Part shown: one piece after another, positions 2,121-45,270 of the stretch
Numbering within the stretch: position 1 is the stretch's first letter
How the letters are laid out: every line of letters starts with the position of its first letter
NCBI GenBank assembly: GCA_012522765.1
Contig: JAAYJW010000193.1
Location: 1-63,014, forward strand
From: a candidate division WS1 bacterium
GTDB lineage: Bacteria > Armatimonadota > Zipacnadia > Zipacnadales > UBA5352
Length of the DNA: 63,014 bases
Direction: 5' to 3'
The notes under the pieces: model-generated
What the model saw: only the letters and a program-made list of their open reading frames with translations
The model's database searches: none
What the model was told of the DNA's origin: nothing
Translations under genes and position numbers: made by a program

Positions 2121-2907
2121 CAGCGGACAGGTCCTCCTTCAGATCGCATGCGCCCGTAGAGAAAGATCATCGTCGCGATGACGCTCACCGACAGCATGAC
2201 GACGCTCACCACCGGCGAGATGATGTCGGCCAGCAGGCCCACAATCAGCCCCGGCACGAGGAAACGATCAGCCACCGCCAGAGCCGCATCATCTCGGGGG
2301 TGACCAGCGTGTCGAGTATCTCTACCGCACCCTTCAGGTAGAAGCCGCACTCGATGCAGCGCGCTCGACCGGGCTGGTTCTCAGCGCCGCAGACCGCGCA
2401 GACCCGCAGGCCCATCTCCTCGCGCCGCTTCCGCGCGAGGCAGCGCTCAAGATGCCGCTTCGCCTGCGCGCTGAGTTCGTGCATCTCCACGTACGCCTGA
2501 TAGTGCTCGATCGCGCGCTCCCAGTCCTCCTGTTCCTCGTAGATCTGCCCGAGACGCAGGTGCGGGTAGGGCACGTCCGGCTGGCGCTTGAGCGCCGCCT
2601 TCAGGTTGAGGATGTCCGCGCGCAGCAGCCGTCGCCCCCTGATCGCCTCGGAGGCGATCGGCAGCAGCGGGATGGCGCCCACAACGAGCGCGAGCAGGAT
2701 GATCGGCCCCACCGCCGCCAGCCCCTGCATGGAGAAGCTCAGCGCGATCAGCACCAGCATCACGCCGACGATCATCATCAACTCGAAGCCGCTGAGAGTG
2801 CGATCAACCAGCCACATGCCGAGCAGGCGGTAGACTGACCAGCCGCACAGCAGCAGAACGAGCACGATCAGCGGGCCGAAGATGAACGCAATATCGGCTC
2901 CGGGCAT
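2120..2907 (-). pseudogene. Membrane protein with TPR and Zn-ribbon, split by an apparent 1-bp deletion near 2262-2264
   Basis: ORF 2245-2907 (TM helices, TPR, CxxC..CxxC) continues in the frame of ORF 2120-2350 (LVPGLIVGLLAD...). Adding one T to GTTTCC gives 263 codons whose stop overlaps the URO-D ATG. Confidence 0.7.
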
Positions 2908-2957
2908 CCTCCGTCACCCCCTGCTCCGGCAGATGTCAGTCGCTCGGCTCTTCCATG

Positions 2958-3004
2958 CCGTAGATGCTCGCCCCGCGGTCAACAAGCTTCTCCCGCAGCG
3001 CGTC
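2958..3004 (-). repeat. 47-bp direct repeat, copy 1 (probable displaced 3' end of the FAD oxidoreductase gene)
   Basis: ccgtagatgctcgccccgcggtcaacaagcttctcccgcagcgcgtc is identical to 4228-4274; in context it reads DALREKLVDRGASIYGMEEPSD* on the minus strand. Confidence 0.95.
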
Positions 3005-3124
3005 CACACCGGCGAATCGCGCGTTGGCGCAATTCGCCGCCTACGCGTCGTCATGCGCCGTCGGACGCCGTTGTTCCTCCAATGCCCGCACCTGCGGCGG
3101 CTCCGGGAAGGCCTCGATGGTCCT

Positions 3125-3213
3125 CTCCTACGGCGTGAGCGTCTGCCGCACGATCCGGTTCCGCGCCATCAGGCGCGCGAGTCATGAGCGTCGGCTGCAT
3201 GGCTTTGTTCGGC
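3125..3213 (-). mobile_element. Integron attC-like recombination site (solitary, degenerate R')
   Basis: Minus strand reads GCCGAAC-aaagc-CATGCAGCCGAC...cgcgcc-TGAT-ggcgcg...GTGCGGCAGA-cgctcacgcc-GTAGGA, i.e. R'', L'', apical stem, L' and an R' lacking one T relative to GTTAGG. Confidence 0.6.
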
Positions 3214-4089
3214 ATGAATGGCAATTTCATCCGCCAGCCTGGGCAGCAGCACCTCTGGCAGACAATGGCCAAGCCCGTCAATTTCTATCAGTCGGGCATT
3301 TGGAAGCAAGTCTGCGATGTGTTTGCCATGGGGCGGTGGGTTAAGAGGGTCCTCAGAACCCTGAATCACCAGGGTCGGAATGCTCACTCCTCTTAACTCC
3401 TCCCCCCGTGAAAACGAAACCGGAGTTGCCAGTGCGTGATTCCCGGGCTGTGTCCAGCTTCCAGCATGATCTATACAGCGTCGCTCACGAAGTCGGAAGT
3501 CTGACTCGTCAAACTCAATCCTGTTCCCTGCAAGCAGACGCCATTCTCTAACACGGCGATCGAGCTCTTCTTCTATGCTTTCAGAGGGAGTTGCGCGCTC
3601 AGAAAGCGCTTCAAGCACATTCTTATTTGGAACAGGCAAACCGTCCGGCGAACTCTCTCCTGAAAAAGCCCGGGCAATATTGCCAACGAAGTCCACATCA
3701 AGCGCCGCTCCACACATAACCGTCAAGCTATGGAGTCGATCCGGATGATCCAGTGCAAGCACTTGCCCTAATGTCGCGCCCATCGACAAACCTACAATAT
3801 GTGCTTTGTTCACTTCCCATGCGTCGAGAACCGATACTGCATCTGACGCCAGATCCTCCACGGCATAGGGAGATTCATCAAAGTCAATGAAGGTAGAACG
3901 CCCCGTATCACGATGATCATACCGGATGACGCGATACCCTTTGGAAACGAGCAGCTCAACAAATTCATTCGGCCACATCAGTGCTGATGCATTGGCGCCA
4001 GCAACCAAAAGGATCGTGTCTATTCGACCCGATCCAACTGACTCACTCCAGAGTGATCTGCCGTCCACATCTACAAGCTTCTCTGGCAC
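3169..4089 (-). CDS. Alpha/beta hydrolase, RdmC/DnrP-like methylesterase family
   Basis: GLSMG nucleophile elbow, IRYDHRDTGRST, DP..P.PHGKH and GLGH motifs; GTG start at 4089 with GGAGG RBS; visibly more AT-rich than its neighbours. Confidence 0.85.
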   Translation of the reverse strand: MPEKLVDVDGRSLWSESVGSGRIDTILLVAGANASALMWPNEFVELLVSKGYRVIRYDHRDTGRSTFIDFDESPYAVEDLASDAVSVLDAWEVNKAHIVGLSMGATLGQVLALDHPDRLHSLTVMCGAALDVDFVGNIARAFSGESSPDGLPVPNKNVLEALSERATPSESIEEELDRRVREWRLLAGNRIEFDESDFRLRERRCIDHAGSWTQPGNHALATPVSFSRGEELRGVSIPTLVIQGSEDPLNPPPHGKHIADLLPNARLIEIDGLGHCLPEVLLPRLADEIAIHAEQSHAADAHDSRA

Positions 4090-4211
4090 GACAATCGTCC
4101 TCCACATAGGGCCCGATCGCGTGGGCATCCGGAGGATCACAGGCGATCCCTTCGGAGTTACTGCGCACTACAGCGCCTCAGACCACCGGCCCCCTCTTCA
4201 CCTCTCCCCCA

Positions 4212-5504
4212 TCACTCTTCGCTGAGACCGTAGATGCTCGCCCCGCGGTCAACAAGCTTCTCCCGCAGCGCGTCTACATCAACGGATCGGACGTCGGCCT
4301 CCTCCAGAGCCATCTCGGCGGCGCATCCGGCCGCTTCGCCTATTGCCATCACGATCGGCATAACGCGCATTGAGCTATGCGCCGCATGGTCGCAGGAGAT
4401 GCAGCGGGCGGCGATCAGCAGGTTGTCGAAGCCCCGCGGCGTGATGCAGCGGTACGGCACGTCGTAGGCCTCGCCCGGTGGCAGGCGCTTGATGACCGTG
4501 CCCGTCCCCGCCGGGTTATGTATGTCCACCGAGTACGATCCGCGCGCGATGCCATCATCGAACTTGTGCGCCTCGAGGACGTCATCCACGGTCAGCAGGT
4601 AGTCGCCCATGATGCGGCGGCTCTCGCGGATGCCGATCTGCGGCGCCATCTCCTCCAGCCACGCCTCCTCGAAGCCGGGCACGTGGTCAACGAGGAAGCG
4701 CACCATCTGCCGCACCTGCCGCCGGCCGATCAGTTCCGCGTCAGTCATATCCTCGGCATTGGTGGCGTCGTGCATAACCACGCGGGTGGTGTTGAAGTGT
4801 ACCTGGCGATCGTGGGTGGTGAAGAACTTCAGCACGTTCTCGCGCGGGTTGTCGATCTCGCCGCGCTCCTTTGCGGCGTCGTAGAGTTCGTTGATCTCCT
4901 GCCGCGAGGGCATCGCCTCAATGTTCACGTTCATCATCCGGAAGCAGAGCGTCATTGGCTGGCAGTGGCCATCCTCCTCGCGCCCGATCTCCACCTCCGC
5001 GCCCGCCCACGCCGCGAGATCGCCATCGCCGGTGCCATCGATGAAGATCTCGCCATGCACCTGTCGAAGGCCGGACTTGCTGAGGGTGGCGATGCTGGTG
5101 ATCGCTTCATCGGCGGTATCTACATCGGCCAGCATGGTGTGAAGCTGCAGCCTCACGCCCGCCTCGGCGCAAAAATCCTCAGCGACGAACTTGAACATTT
5201 CCTCATCGAACGCCGAGGGCTGTCTTGGCCCGCCCCAGCCGCCGTACTCATCGAGGCGCCCGGTGATGCGCTCGAAGAGCCCACGGATGATCGGCTTGCC
5301 GCCGGCCACCCACGGCATGAACGGGTTCACCAGCCCCGCGGTGGCCATGCCGCCGAGGAAACCGTAGCGTTCGATCAGCAAGACATCGGCGCCCTCCTCA
5401 GCAGCCGCGACTGCGGCGCATAGTCCACCCGGGCCGCCTCCCACCACGACCACTTCGGCCTCGTCGGCTACATCCAGCGCGTCATAGTTGATCGCATTGC
5501 TCAT
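4212..5504 (-). CDS. FAD-dependent oxidoreductase (FAD_oxidored family)
   Basis: VVVVGGGPGG Rossmann motif, ERYGFLGG..T.G.V, IDGTGDGD, RESRRI.G.Y.LT, YDVPYRC motifs. Confidence 0.9.
   Translation of the reverse strand: MSNAINYDALDVADEAEVVVVGGGPGGLCAAVAAAEEGADVLLIERYGFLGGMATAGLVNPFMPWVAGGKPIIRGLFERITGRLDEYGGWGGPRQPSAFDEEMFKFVAEDFCAEAGVRLQLHTMLADVDTADEAITSIATLSKSGLRQVHGEIFIDGTGDGDLAAWAGAEVEIGREEDGHCQPMTLCFRMMNVNIEAMPSRQEINELYDAAKERGEIDNPRENVLKFFTTHDRQVHFNTTRVVMHDATNAEDMTDAELIGRRQVRQMVRFLVDHVPGFEEAWLEEMAPQIGIRESRRIMGDYLLTVDDVLEAHKFDDGIARGSYSVDIHNPAGTGTVIKRLPPGEAYDVPYRCITPRGFDNLLIAARCISCDHAAHSSMRVMPIVMAIGEAAGCAAEMALEEADVRSVDVDALREKLVDRGASIYGLSEE
4228..4274 (-). repeat. 47-bp direct repeat, copy 2 (inside the current 3' end of the FAD oxidoreductase)
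   Basis: Identical to 2958-3004, offset 1270 bp. Confidence 0.95.
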
Positions 5505-5854
5505 CAGTCAGACTCCTCGGGTTCATTCAGATCTACTGTAATGTGCATGCCCTGTTCGGCGGCCTCACGCGCCAGCGTGTTCCACTCCTGCATCTCGTCA
5601 AACTGCTCCCGCGAGCAGGGTAGCAGCTCAACCTGGATATCCCATCGCCACTTCGCCTGAAGCTCCGGCAGCAGCTTGCTCAGCGGCTGGCCCGCGAACC
5701 TGTCGTCGAGCAGGACGAGGTTGAGGTCGGAATGAGGTCGTTCATCACCACGCTGGCGAGAGCCGAAGAAGATCGCTTCTTGGACGCTCACGCGGCGCAT
5801 GAAGGCGCGGATCTCCTCGATCAGTTCCTCTCGCGGTACTTTGCCTCGATCCAC
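5504..5854 (-). CDS. Minimal nucleotidyltransferase MNT3 (116 aa)
   Basis: FFGSRQRGDERPHSDLNLV motif; GTG start overlaps the HEPN3 3' end by 34 bp; stop overlaps the oxidoreductase ATG. Confidence 0.8.
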   Translation of the reverse strand: MDRGKVPREELIEEIRAFMRRVSVQEAIFFGSRQRGDERPHSDLNLVLLDDRFAGQPLSKLLPELQAKWRWDIQVELLPCSREQFDEMQEWNTLAREAAEQGMHITVDLNEPEESD

Positions 5855-6219
5855 TCGAAGGCCTCCTCTGCCAGTTCCACGGCCTCCTGCGCGTCCTCGG
5901 GTTCGAACTGCTCCGAGGGCGGACCGCCTGCGGCATCCACGTAGCGCGTGGACATGTAGAACGGGTTCAACCGCTTGATGATTTGCCAGATCGGCTCGGG
6001 TATCCTCCCGAAGATGTCGTGGATCATCGCCTGGAGTGAGTGCTCGCGTGGCATGGGGCGCTTGAGGAGGATCGGGTAGCCGCACTTGAGGAGCTTCTCG
6101 ATCGCCTGCCGTGCGTGGAAGATAGCGTGGTGGGGGATGACGTGCTGCGAGAGCAGGCGGGCCGCCTCAAGGTCAATGCGGGCGTCGGCGATCCATCCCT
6201 GTTCGCGTTCGGAGAGCAT
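5821..6219 (-). CDS. HEPN domain protein HEPN3 (COG2250-like, 132 aa)
   Basis: W..DA..DL.AA, F.A.QA.EK.LK, P.REH.L and Y..TRY motifs; ATG at 6219. Confidence 0.8.
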   Translation of the reverse strand: MLSEREQGWIADARIDLEAARLLSQHVIPHHAIFHARQAIEKLLKCGYPILLKRPMPREHSLQAMIHDIFGRIPEPIWQIIKRLNPFYMSTRYVDAAGGPPSEQFEPEDAQEAVELAEEAFEWIEAKYRERN

Positions 6220-6338
6220 AATAGTCAGGTGGCCTCGTGGGATTCGTCGTCGGCCATGATACGTATACCCTCGCGGTCGGCGATGCGCTCGATGCCGATC
6301 TGCTTGCGCGCCTCCTCGAACTCCTCGGGAGTGTAGGC
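6178..6338. repeat. 161-bp direct repeat, copy 1 (MNT 3' end plus HEPN 5' end)
   Basis: Matches 7068-7228 with about 6 mismatches counted by eye; offset 890 bp. Confidence 0.9.
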
Positions 6339-6575
6339 CAGAAGCTCGATGGGAGGACGCACAAGTCGCCACTCCAGATAGAGCGGTGGCAGTCGATCCA
6401 GAAAGCGCACGCCCTTGAAGCGGGAAGAGATGAGCATGAGGTCGGCGTCGCTGTGTCGCCGTTCCTCACCGCGGGCATATGAGCCGTAGAGGATCGCCTC
6501 CTCGACATCCACACGCCGCAAGTAATCGCGGATTTCCTCTACGAGCCTTTCTCGCGTAAGAGGGCGGTCGCCCAC
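6225..6575 (-). CDS. Minimal nucleotidyltransferase MNT2 (116 aa)
   Basis: LYGSYARGEERRHSDADL motif; GTG at 6575 gives the same length as MNT1 and MNT3 (the ORF track starts at ATG 6593). Confidence 0.85.
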   Translation of the reverse strand: MGDRPLTRERLVEEIRDYLRRVDVEEAILYGSYARGEERRHSDADLMLISSRFKGVRFLDRLPPLYLEWRLVRPPIELLAYTPEEFEEARKQIGIERIADREGIRIMADDESHEAT

Positions 6576-6946
6576 TGTAATGTCTTTGAGCATTGTCTCC
6601 TCGCCTCCTCCGCATCCGCTTTACAGTATTCCTCGCCTGGCACAGCCATCAGGCTGCTGCGATAGCGAGAGATCGTGTAGTGACGATCTAAGCCCGCGAG
6701 CGCCTCCAGAATCTCCTGGGGCACTTCCGTACCGGGCGGTACGCCGTCCGCGGCAAGCATTCGAAGGCTATGTGAATGCGGAGGTTCCTCACTATGCTGG
6801 TCCGCGTAGAGAGCTTTGAGTGCCTTCTCAGCGGCCTGTTGCGCTATGAAACACGCCCAGTTGTACTTCTCCTCGCGTATGTTGGAATGGACGGCCAGCA
6901 TGTCCTCCTGGGCCTGCCGCACCCATTCCTCAGCCTCCCGTCGCAT
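6539..6946 (-). CDS. HEPN domain protein HEPN2 (COG2250-like, 135 aa)
   Basis: W..QA.ED, YNWACF.AQQAAEKALKA, PPHSHSL and Y..SRY motifs. Confidence 0.85.
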   Translation of the reverse strand: MRREAEEWVRQAQEDMLAVHSNIREEKYNWACFIAQQAAEKALKALYADQHSEEPPHSHSLRMLAADGVPPGTEVPQEILEALAGLDRHYTISRYRSSLMAVPGEEYCKADAEEARRQCSKTLQWATALLREKGS

Positions 6947-7022
6947 CAGCTACGCAATCCTCCCGGTGACCGATAGCCTGAACCCATCCGCCGAGCCGCG
7001 GCAGTGGCGCGGATCAGGAGCA

Positions 7023-7109
7023 CTACATGTACCTGGCCTCAAGTACGTAAGCGGCTTCAAGCTGGGCGCGGGCGTCGGCGACCCATCCCCGTTCGCGTTC
7101 GGAGAGCAT
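7023..7109 (-). pseudogene. Truncated HEPN N-terminus (28 aa)
   Basis: MLSERERGWVADARAQLEAAYVLEARYM* is a paralog of the HEPN3 start MLSEREQGWIADARIDLEAA. Confidence 0.75.
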
Positions 7110-7228
7110 GATGGTCAGGTGGCCTCGTAGGATTCTTCGTCGGCCATGATACGTATACCCTCGCGGTCGGCGATGCGCTCGATGCCGATCTGCTTGCGCG
7201 CCTCCTCGAACTCCTCGGGAGTGTAGGC
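7068..7228. repeat. 161-bp direct repeat, copy 2
   Basis: Near-identical to 6178-6338. Confidence 0.9.
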
Positions 7229-7465
7229 AAGCGCTTCAAGGAATGGCAGCGATGGGTCCCACGCGTGATGCAGGGCGGCGAGGCGCTGGTGAGGTACCGT
7301 ACCTTCAAAGCGCCGCGAGATGACCATCAAGTCGACATCGCTGTCGCCCAGATTGGTTCCTTTGGCTCGCGAACCGTAGAGTATCGCTTGCCTGACCGCG
7401 ATCCGCGACATGAAGCGCCTGATTTCGTCGATTAGCTCTTCGCGTCGAAGGAGGCGGAGAGCCAC
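7115..7465 (-). CDS. Minimal nucleotidyltransferase MNT1 (116 aa)
   Basis: LYGSRAKGTNLGDSDVDL motif; GTG start with GGAG RBS. Confidence 0.85.
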   Translation of the reverse strand: MALRLLRREELIDEIRRFMSRIAVRQAILYGSRAKGTNLGDSDVDLMVISRRFEGTVPHQRLAALHHAWDPSLPFLEALAYTPEEFEEARKQIGIERIADREGIRIMADEESYEAT

Positions 7466-44250: not shown

Positions 44251-45270
44251 CTACAGCAGGTCCGCGAGGTCCACGAAACCATCGTCCCATGCACTCGATT
44301 GTCGCTTCCTGGAGATCTGCTGCAGGGCCGTCACTACCCGTGCAGCCTGCGCCGACACCACCTGCGCGAGGCTCAGGCTCTCCTCGCTGAATGCCCCATC
44401 GCACTGGTCGTAGAAGGCGATTACGCCCGCGACCTCGCCGTCGGACTGCAGCGGCTCTGCAAGCACCGACTGCACGCCGAGAAAACCGAGATGCTCATCA
44501 TCCGCGATTGCGCCGGAGAGGACGTCGTTCTCAATGCGCGCCACACCGGTCACTGCAGCCGAGCCAAGCAGTCCACAGTCAAGCGCAACATCCCTGCCGA
44601 CCACGTCCCTCTCGGCCAACCCTTCGGTGACAATCCCCTGCAGTCGGGGCGGATCGTGCCGGATCCCGTAGACGGCCGCTGCGCGCGCATGCGTCACCTG
44701 TATCCCCGCGCGCAGTATCGAGCGCAATGTATCGGTGAGATCCTCACTCTCGCCCAGTTCCCGGCCCAGATCCACGAATGCAGAGAGGTCCTCGTTGGCG
44801 CTGCGCACCCGCTCGGATAGCTGCTCCTGCTGGCGGAGCAGTTGATCGTTGGCGGCACGCAGTTCGGTGAGCAGCGCGTCATGCCGCCCGCGCAACCGCT
44901 GGCCTTCGATCCCGCGGTTGACGATCCGCACCAGGTCCGCGGCTGAGAACGGCTTGCGGAGGTACTCATAGGCGCCGAGCCTGACGGCTTCCATCGCGGT
45001 CTCGAGGCTCGCGAAGCCGGTGACGAGCACCACTACAGCCTCGGGACTGCGCTGCTTGATCGAGCGCAGCAGCGTCAGGCCATCTGTGCCGGGCAGCATG
45101 ATGTCGAAGATCGCCGCGTCGAAGTGCCCGCTCGCGATCGCCGCAAGCGCGGACGCGCCATCCTCGTGGGAGGTCACCTGGTGCCCCGCGCGCCCGAGTG
45201 CCTTTGCACAGAGCTCTCTGATAGCCGGCTCATCGTCCACGACCAGCACTTTTGCGCCCTGATCGATCAT
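44251..45270 (-). CDS. Response regulator (REC, coiled coil, GAF)
   Basis: VLVVDDE, FDIMLP..DG, TG...LE.A.EA...GA..YL.KPF; C-terminal GAF-like domain. Confidence 0.85.
   Translation of the reverse strand: MIDQGAKVLVVDDEPAIRELCAKALGRAGHQVTSHEDGASALAAIASGHFDAAIFDIMLPGTDGLTLLRSIKQRSPEAVVVLVTGFASLETAMEAVRLGAYEYLRKPFSAADLVRIVNRGIEGQRLRGRHDALLTELRAANDQLLRQQEQLSERVRSANEDLSAFVDLGRELGESEDLTDTLRSILRAGIQVTHARAAAVYGIRHDPPRLQGIVTEGLAERDVVGRDVALDCGLLGSAAVTGVARIENDVLSGAIADDEHLGFLGVQSVLAEPLQSDGEVAGVIAFYDQCDGAFSEESLSLAQVVSAQAARVVTALQQISRKRQSSAWDDGFVDLADLL

Follow-up and report, generated by a model that had tools for sequence, protein, structure and literature searches.

The question raised by this locus is how a hydrolase gene with integron-like motifs at its 3' end came to lie among the chromosomal genes of an uncultured bacterium from candidate division WS1 (Armatimonadota), and how much of an integron recombination site is left beside it. 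The stretch of DNA analysed, hereafter called the window, comprises the 63,014 nucleotides of contig JAAYJW010000193.1 (GenBank assembly GCA_012522765.1). The gene is encoded on the minus strand and lies between host genes for a flavin adenine dinucleotide (FAD)-dependent oxidoreductase and a tetratricopeptide repeat (TPR)/zinc-ribbon membrane protein (Table 1). An initial annotation had described it as a cassette captured from an integron and followed by a near-intact attC site of 89 bp. The hydrolase is very probably a former integron cassette that has been domesticated in the Armatimonadota chromosome. The site that follows it is, on alignment with intact attCs, a truncated remnant and not a solitary attC lacking an integrase (SALIN) in the strict sense.

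An esterase cassette of gammaproteobacterial integrons

The closest homologs of the hydrolase share 78-84% amino acid identity with it (77-82% at the DNA level) and were found in Marinobacter, Halomonas, Ketobacter and Kineobactrum and on related metagenome contigs. The named carriers are Ketobacter sp. MCCC 1A13808, Marinobacter sp. DUT-3, Kineobactrum salinum and Halomonas sp. Y3 (loci L004-L013). The neighbourhoods of these homologs are arrays of small genes on the same strand, encoding GNAT, glyoxalase, GrpB, GST and GFA proteins, and the Ketobacter array is preceded by a divergent integrase that scores 423.7 bits against the TIGR02249 'integron integrase' model (cut-off 265). DNA alignment placed a 5' boundary common to all copies at G^TTCAGCAG, 38 nucleotides ahead of the start codon, and a common 3' boundary at ...CCTGATGGC(T)GGCG^TTA, 8 nucleotides past the stop codon (here and below the caret marks a boundary or joint). 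Outside both boundaries the homologous cassettes are unrelated, and they stand in at least seven distinct contexts with differing neighbours. The R'' sequence of the homologs, GCTGAAC, is the exact reverse complement of G plus TTCAGC, as expected when a circular cassette closes. Since the homologs occupy varied array positions with identical boundaries, and since the Ketobacter array adjoins a gene for an integron integrase, the window gene is, judging from homology, an integron gene cassette by descent, as the initial annotation had proposed. A compact, promoterless esterase cassette is carried by integrons of marine and halophilic Gammaproteobacteria.

The attC of the homologs is 59-60 nucleotides long and overlaps the last approximately 14 codons. 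The bottom strands of these sites fold as a hairpin of R box, spacer and L box in which two bases bulge out (z -2.0 to -3.3), and the C-terminal tail of the protein, H-AEQSHAAD-ARTSRG, is the translation of the attC. Every cassette-borne homolog of 60% identity or more has the AEQSHAAD tail, which the more distant Archangium and Planctomycetes proteins lack. The initial annotation had staked its reading on a significant attC score and on the confinement of this tail to cassettes; the score of the window site was not significant, as described below, and the tail was found inside, not outside, cassette contexts. One homolog of 60% identity (L021) also has an attC at the end of its open reading frame (ORF; 19.5 bits), and two homologs of 65% identity (L022 and L023) gave no match to the attC covariance model.

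The covariance model used for these searches, R2, was built only from 16 other array attCs, the attCs of hydrolase cassettes being excluded. It was started from four Kineobactrum sites of equal length (14 compensatory pairs) and grown to 16 sites with Infernal. Models R1 and R2 both locate array attCs. R2 gave 44 matches in 222 kb, every one of them on the cassette strand, and found the hydrolase-cassette attCs in 9 loci with scores of 29-33 bits (E 7e-5 to 4e-4). The named attC structure was 93.6% paired, compared with 23-39% in slid controls, and includes one compensatory pair (C-G / G-C). Two other approaches were set aside: a MAFFT alignment of nine array attCs of unequal length was structurally poor and was replaced by the equal-length set, and a finder combining regular expressions with folding, which caught the strong array sites, was dropped because it demanded R''/R' complementarity that adjacent cassettes need not have.

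Variation among the cassette arrays was seen in two loci of Halomonas type whose surroundings are those of a conjugative element (TraC, AbiE). Loci L011 (6921-7460) and L012 (6921-6979) carry an identical hydrolase cassette, which in one of the two is followed immediately by an additional glyoxalase cassette that has an attC of its own (7377-7460, 41.9 bits). This difference suggests the gain or loss of a cassette without an integrase within 6 kb.

The composition of the window gene agrees with such an origin as the initial annotation had seen it, namely a minus-strand ORF with a ribosome-binding site (RBS) in front and more AT-rich than the host genes. Windowed GC content is 0.51-0.55 in the hydrolase and about 0.62-0.69 in its surroundings. 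GC content at third codon positions (GC3) is 0.48, against 0.47-0.50 in the gammaproteobacterial copies and 0.80-0.89 in four host genes. The gene is compositionally foreign to the host, and its unameliorated GC3 shows that the cassette arrived recently. Longer ORF calls extend to 4107 or 4140; alignment with the homologs indicated the GTG at 4089 as the best start. The ORF is intact and has its own RBS. No sigma-70-like promoter site was found in 2800-4400, a consensus that may not apply to the host phylum. The gene resembles integron cassettes in its compactness, its lack of a promoter and its make-up of one ORF preceded by an RBS. Its transcription presumably comes from read-through of the FAD gene directly upstream.

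The encoded protein matches Pfam Abhydrolase_1 (PF00561; 2.6e-24, 86.7 bits against a gathering score of 25.8), and the catalytic residues S119, D264 and H292 (323-residue numbering) are invariant across 15 aligned sequences. The structure of RdmC, an aclacinomycin methylesterase (PDB 1q0r), matches over its full length (residues 2-294, E 3.3e-86). The EstX and EstT structures match at 7.6e-40 and 1.3e-37, in a range of about 1e-40 to 1e-29. The best NCBIfam matches are macrolide-esterase models (NF052610, NF041759 and NF033124), all of them far under their curated cut-offs (194.2 against 420, 144.6 against 450 and 136.4 against 600 bits, the last cut-off being that of EstX). By these profile and structure matches the hydrolase is related to the macrolide esterases EstT and EstX but not assignable as a member. 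It probably functions as a serine esterase, with an ester of polyketide type as its likely substrate.

Table 1 Features of the hydrolase locus, in window coordinates.
Feature	Position	Strand	Basis or remark
FAD-dependent oxidoreductase gene, host	4212..5504	minus	directly upstream of hydrolase; Pfam FAD_oxidored 1.2e-127
Repeat copy B	4228..4298	minus	3' end of native FAD gene, ...VDALREKLVDRGASIYG; relatives likewise end ...YGLSEE, stop
Spacer, about 80 nucleotides	4104-4185	minus	between host intergenic DNA and cassette RBS
RBS GGAGGA	4098-4103	minus	8 nucleotides before GTG; aligns with AAGGAGG of gammaproteobacterial cassettes
Alpha/beta-hydrolase gene, cassette-derived, RdmC/EstT-like serine esterase (predicted)	3169..4089	minus	306 amino acids, GTG start at 4089
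Truncated attC	3164..3213	minus	alignment with eight intact cassette attCs; R2 model
R'' GCCGAAC	3213-3207	minus	GCTGAAC in homologs; both deviate from RYYYAAC at position 4, AAC kept and aligned
Spacer AAA of attC	3206-3204	minus	attC alignment
L'' GCCATGCAG	3203-3195	minus	extrahelical G at 3198; variable loop between L'' and L'
L' CCTGATGGC	3173-3165	minus	includes stop codon TGA at 3171-3169
Cassette/host junction	3161..3164	minus	best 3164^3163, ambiguous over about 4 nucleotides; three-way alignment of window, relatives and cassettes
TPR1 pseudogene remnant, last 32 codons of TPR/zinc-ribbon membrane protein paralog	3068..3163	minus	BLASTP and DNA alignment
Repeat copy A	2958..3028	minus	orphan duplicate of FAD gene 3' end between TPR1 remnant and TPR2, ending ...YGMEEPSD, stop
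TPR2, host TPR/zinc-ribbon membrane protein gene	2245..2907	minus	downstream neighbour; Pfam TPR, Zn_Ribbon; 77% DNA identity to L015

The truncated attC and the host gene at its edge

In the window attC the L''/L' duplex is present with its extrahelical bases, GCCAT[G]CAGCCG[A]CGC (extrahelical bases in brackets) pairing with GCGCGCCTGATGGC, and the L-box helix is 94.6% paired over 9 sequences. The R' box (GTTRRRY) is absent: where the eight homologs read GGCG^TTRRRY, with TTA or TTC, the window reads GGCG-CGGAACC (G-CGGAACCGG), and among the compared attCs only that of the window has lost the three R-box pairs. With filters off, R2 aligned 3160-3213 but skipped four R' positions as deletions, for a score of 8.6 bits (E 0.39 in a search of 1.6 kb). 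The default R2 search of 222 kb gave no match to the window attC, compared with 29-33 bits for the intact homologs. The bottom strand of 3145-3220 has a z score of -1.3 and a fold that differs from the attC fold, and a scan of 2500-4700 against Rfam, with E values up to 10, returned only chance microRNA and small nucleolar RNA matches and no attC-like family. The attC is cut at, or 2-5 nucleotides before, the canonical G^TT crossover. Binding of an integron integrase to attC needs the R''/R' duplex. Because R' is missing and the R box cannot pair, the window attC is probably no longer recombinable by an integron integrase.

The other side of the cut was identified by comparison with relatives of the host. 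Orthologs of the FAD gene with 83-87% identity occur in five Armatimonadota metagenome-assembled genomes (MAGs), among them UBA5352 and a Candidatus Zipacnadia bin. The hydrolase is absent from all five of these MAGs, which have FAD-TPR or FAD-TPR1-TPR2 instead. In L015 and L016 the FAD gene is followed by a single gene for a TPR/zinc-ribbon membrane protein, and in L014 (6478-8384) and L018 (6540-8409) by the tandem paralogs TPR1 and TPR2, the paralog types having about 47% amino acid identity to each other. The window descends from the two-copy state. The remnant of TPR1 shares 66% identity with residues 260-291 of the 292-residue L014 protein (E 4e-12) and 58% with L018 (E 9e-12), and contains an in-frame TAG at 3130-3128 (CCG TAG GAG in the window, CCG CAG GAG in relatives). 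Compared with the relatives, the cassette takes the place of the 5' portion of TPR1, about 90% of the gene or the first approximately 260 codons. At the joint the two parents read ...GATGGCG (cassette) and CG(C/G)AACCGG (host), with GCG as microhomology. The 9-mer CCTCGCGCG is found in both parents 10 nucleotides upstream of the joint, a coincidence with a chance estimate of about 0.002-0.008. A joint at the canonical crossover, 3161^3160, is possible if two substitutions are allowed.

Three foreign cassette contigs from landfill and leachate metagenomes share 3165-3216 with the window, then continue with GGCGTTCAAGG, GCGTTAGGT or GGCGTTATGC, and part from the window exactly at 3164/3165. In foreign contigs of runs X4, X5 and X8 only the attC part of approximately 52 nucleotides was matched (5 mismatches), and the sequence to either side differed. 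This type of attC may thus also accompany another cargo gene, or a very divergent one.

These alignments bear directly on the initial annotation, in which a near-intact 89-bp SALIN attC occupied 3125-3213 and its R', GT-AGG, was one T short through decay or sequence error. Such a site is now considered highly improbable. Two of its motifs, GCCGAAC (3213-3207) and ATGCAGC (3200-3194), truly exist and belong by homology to the real attC, and no integrase lies nearby. The two motifs on the other arm were misassigned: the supposed L' (GCGGCAGA, 3149-3142) and the supposed R' (GT-AGG, 3131-3127) are both part of the TPR1 remnant, since positions 3163-3068 encode the C-terminus of a host protein (E 4e-12). 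Host coding sequence begins at 3164^3163, so that R' is absent and not decayed, and GTAGG is produced by a CAG-to-TAG stop mutation (CCG-TAG-GAG against CCG-CAG-GAG). The supposed 89-bp imperfect palindrome (3125-3214) folds like its shuffles: the minimum free energy structure consists of three small stem-loops with a z score of +0.13, 107 of 200 shuffles fold as well, and the 'apical 6-bp stem' is partly a product of the cassette/host junction. Intact homologous attCs are 59-60 nucleotides long and end 8 nucleotides past the stop codon, and the covariance model aligns only 3160-3213. A true site of about 59 rather than 89 nucleotides that lacks R' and scores 8.6 bits does not qualify as a SALIN.

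Searches of the remainder of the window are in keeping with an isolated remnant. No integron integrase was found in the 63-kb window by tblastn with the Ketobacter IntI (best E 1.2), in agreement with the earlier statement that none is adjacent. No credible second attC was found in the same 63 kb with R2, and the window contains neither a complete integron nor a cluster of attCs lacking an integrase (CALIN). Of the two features that define a SALIN, the lack of a nearby intI or further attC is present, and one attC at the model threshold is not. The sole other R2 match, at 44625-44699 (16 bits), has GTGAC/GTCAC instead of AAC/GTT, lies within an ORF of 339 amino acids, and was judged to be a chance GC-rich hairpin.

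The arrangement was also examined in independent data. The order FAD-hydrolase-TPR2 was found in three independent assemblies made with different assemblers, and contigs of four metagenomes from different studies cover 2975-4257 with 0 gaps. The proposal that a T of R' had been lost by assembly error does not survive these gap-free contigs in four independent runs. Insert depth equals that of the flanks in four metagenomes (in X3, 39.6 against flanks of 39.9 and 39.2), and no sign of an excised or deleted form was seen in them. Because the contigs are gap-free and the insert is as deep as its flanks, assembly error, chimera and polymorphic insertion are excluded at this resolution. A chimera would have required the gene of a co-occurring gammaproteobacterium to be stitched in via the 47-nucleotide repeat described below. 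That repeat is of k-mer size, and the landfill and leachate samples in question do contain related cassettes with intact attCs. Against a chimera stand the three assemblies, the single contigs across 2975-4257/4274 in X3 and X4 with depth equal to the flanks, and the position of the junction 3164^3163 in unique sequence outside the repeat, and a chimera is considered next to negligible.

Routes of integration and the flanking repeat

The source would be an esterase cassette of gammaproteobacterial integrons, contributed by an unsampled donor with about 80% DNA identity to the known copies. The DNA would have travelled as a cassette, because the insert fits the cassette ends tightly. Joining to the chromosome may then have occurred by microhomology-guided illegitimate recombination that replaced host DNA, and not by the canonical integrase-mediated attC x GTT exchange. 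The insert now lies between the FAD gene and TPR2, with R' lost and the 5' part of TPR1 replaced. An illegitimate join of a travelling cassette is favoured because the joint is not of the GWT type, a 9-nucleotide microhomology is present, and host DNA was lost simultaneously; as the mechanism of integration it is given an even chance.

The competing route is an attC x attG insertion catalysed by an integrase in TPR1 at about codon 260, followed by deletion of the upstream part of TPR1. In this exchange the crossover swaps the 3' part of R' (the TT after G) for target DNA without GTT. The tight fit of the cassette ends, a 3' joint 0-3 nucleotides from the canonical G^TT and a possible GCG^ATCGGGC at the 5' side are what this route would leave, and it has been experimentally established in E. 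coli, with GWT as the target consensus (bioRxiv 10.1101/2022.09.11.507474). The target in the window would be G^AAC or C^AAC, however, and not G^WT, and a joint at the canonical position can be had only if two of the last cassette bases were substituted. The route further needs an integrase active in an Armatimonadota cell and a second event, a deletion of at least 780 nucleotides, and leaves the 9-nucleotide microhomology beside the joint without a reason. An attC x attG insertion is on these grounds considered somewhat unlikely.

The locus also contains a direct repeat of 71 nucleotides (47 identical, then 16/24) with a spacing of 1270, which brackets a hydrolase unit of 1,270 bp. Copy A is 100% identical to copy B over 47 nucleotides, and orthologs are 86-87% identical to either copy. 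Because copy A is closer to copy B than the orthologs are, the duplication or conversion was recent. No significant vestige of copy A or of the 3' end of the FAD gene was found in the TPR1-TPR2 spacers of relatives (p 0.1-0.8). With nothing in those spacers, there is no support for copy A as a simple leftover of the duplication that gave the tandem TPR genes. Homology past the ends of the 71-nucleotide repeat was not significant. A hairpin with a 13-bp stem and a 4-nucleotide loop at 3010-3039 (minus strand, CGGCGAATTGCGC-CAAC-GCGCGATTCGCCG) stands exactly at the diverged edge of copy A, and the eight mismatches between copies A and B cluster in one arm of it, a pattern consistent with what a quasi-palindrome template-switch mutation would produce. 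The unitig of the 47-nucleotide repeat was doubled in depth in three metagenomes (81.2 in X3, 19.1 in X1 and 15.8 in X8).

Such a repeat could have arisen if a circular molecule, by a Campbell-type crossover at the 47-nucleotide FAD segment, had brought in the whole 1,270-bp unit of repeat, spacer, cassette and TPR1 remnant, or if copy A were the scar of a collapsed tandem amplification. The repeat brackets the unit exactly, an identical core of 47 nucleotides with diverged flanks is the expected trace of a crossover or conversion tract, and the doubled repeat depth places both copies in every genome. The circle, on the other hand, must have carried a piece of the host FAD gene and the end of TPR1, which presupposes that an insertion had already taken place at this locus. 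Variants with a deletion or excision are not seen, the insert being as deep as its flanks; about 135 nucleotides of host-derived DNA lie between copy A and the cassette; and the relatives have no trace of the repeat. Arrival of the unit by either of these means is considered improbable. The repeat itself may be a collapsed-amplification scar, template-switch filler from a complex insertion, or a product of Campbell-type integration.

The 5' end of the insert is less sharply defined. Host-like intergenic sequence can be traced to about 4183, and homology to the cassette leader begins only around TGTGGAGGA (4108-4100), the leader in the window being shorter and unalignable. A weak candidate boundary, GCG^ATCGGGC, lies at 4120-4111, where GTTCGGC is expected from R''; if this is taken with the 3' end, the two ends of the insert would adjoin each other on the cassette circle. 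Chance alone is expected to yield a match of this quality, with one substitution and one insertion, within 70 nucleotides, and the covariance model indicated no attC half at 4120-4111. The initial annotation had seen the L'-R' half of a preceding attC at 4111-4129; the covariance model lends this no support, and a 7-mer as loose as that is expected by chance.

Several observations weigh against descent from a cassette joined by illegitimate recombination. The 5' boundary of the cassette is not locatable, and the spacer at 4104-4185 showed no match beyond chance to relatives, to cassette loci or to other parts of the window. Among known copies the nearest has 84% amino acid identity, so the boundaries would be those of the family rather than of the actual parent. 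The covariance model is a surrogate from two genomes and not the attC model of IntegronFinder, and the search for an integrase covered the 63 kb of the genome in the window, contigs of up to about 150-245 kb having been seen. The position of the junction, within 3 nucleotides of the canonical crossover, argues for an integrase and against a purely random join. Finally, the 71-nucleotide direct repeat is accounted for by neither integration mechanism. There is also a broader reading: cassettes may leave integrons without an integrase, as free or nicked molecules that are joined by microhomology via the GC-rich attC stem, with destruction of R', in a phylum without known integrons. The tail would then be a protein fossil of ex-cassettes and the 71-nucleotide repeat a scar of the same template-switching or amplification event. 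This speculative proposal is considered unlikely.

The host genes around the insert show further changes. TPR2, with 220 amino acids, is C-terminally frameshifted relative to orthologs of 249-299 amino acids, and the same 220-residue call was made in three assemblies. Its C-terminal transmembrane segment, FLVPGLIVGLLADII...FLYGRMRSEGG, was found in another frame (ORF 2120-2350; locus 2120-2907). With TPR1 truncated and TPR2 frameshifted, both TPR paralogs are therefore damaged in the host lineage. On the other side, the minus strand from gatB to the FAD gene (5504-7465) carries three nucleotidyltransferase ORFs and, interspersed with them, two HEPN ORFs in alternating order. This arrangement is consistent with tandem HEPN/MNT-type toxin-antitoxin pairs, and the pairs look like a local duplication.

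Significance and comparison with known systems

The locus offers a base-by-base record of a cassette becoming an ordinary chromosomal gene in a distant phylum, reconstructed from the family of the parent cassette, its junction with the chromosome, the host gene that it overwrote and relatives free of the cassette. Former cassettes without R' evade scans based on attC and are recognisable by homology to cassette boundaries and by a protein tail encoded by attC. The cargo belongs, by similarity, to the RdmC/EstT/EstX group of esterases, which includes enzymes that inactivate polyketide antibiotics, so a relevance to resistance is possible. Digesters, landfills and leachate are common habitats of the host, and cassette copies that are still intact occur alongside it there.

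The gammaproteobacterial copies in Ketobacter, Marinobacter, Kineobactrum and Halomonas are the nearest counterpart of the window gene. They share with it a length of 306 amino acids, GC3, the attC-encoded tail, and R'', spacer, L'' and L' of the same type. They keep GGCG^TTRRRY and the 5' G^TTCAGCAG and sit in attC arrays with varying neighbours, whereas the window copy has R'' GCCGAAC, lacks R', and has host DNA on both sides.

Two enzyme groups provide a comparison for the cargo. The gene estX is a classical class 1/2 integron cassette, and estX and estT encode macrolide esterases of the alpha/beta-hydrolase type (PMC11214618, PMC9974460). EstX and the window protein are of the same fold family and are both cassette-borne esterases, but the window protein is far closer to RdmC. 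In RdmC (1q0r) the nucleophile elbow G-L-S-M-G and the Asp and His positions are conserved. RdmC is a biosynthetic tailoring enzyme of a Streptomyces anthracycline cluster, whereas the window protein is the product of a stand-alone mobile gene, in which the last approximately 12 residues are encoded by attC and extend beyond the aligned region.

Insertion of cassettes into genomes via attC x attG has been described, and their domestication through loss of attC was predicted (Loot et al., bioRxiv 10.1101/2022.09.11.507474). SALINs and genome-inserted cassettes (bioRxiv 10.1101/2022.09.11.507474; IntegronFinder 2.0, PMC9024848) resemble the window locus in consisting of a lone promoterless cassette ORF downstream of a host gene, with no integrase or other attC nearby. 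The window attC differs in being truncated and below any sensible model threshold, so that a scan for SALINs would miss it. In contrast to genome-inserted cassettes, the joint in the window lacks a GWT target, about 90% of a host gene has been replaced, and the host belongs to Armatimonadota, an unusual phylum for such an element. The isolated, domesticated cassette is a known phenomenon, of which this locus is a further example, clear though not unprecedented, rather than a new kind of element.

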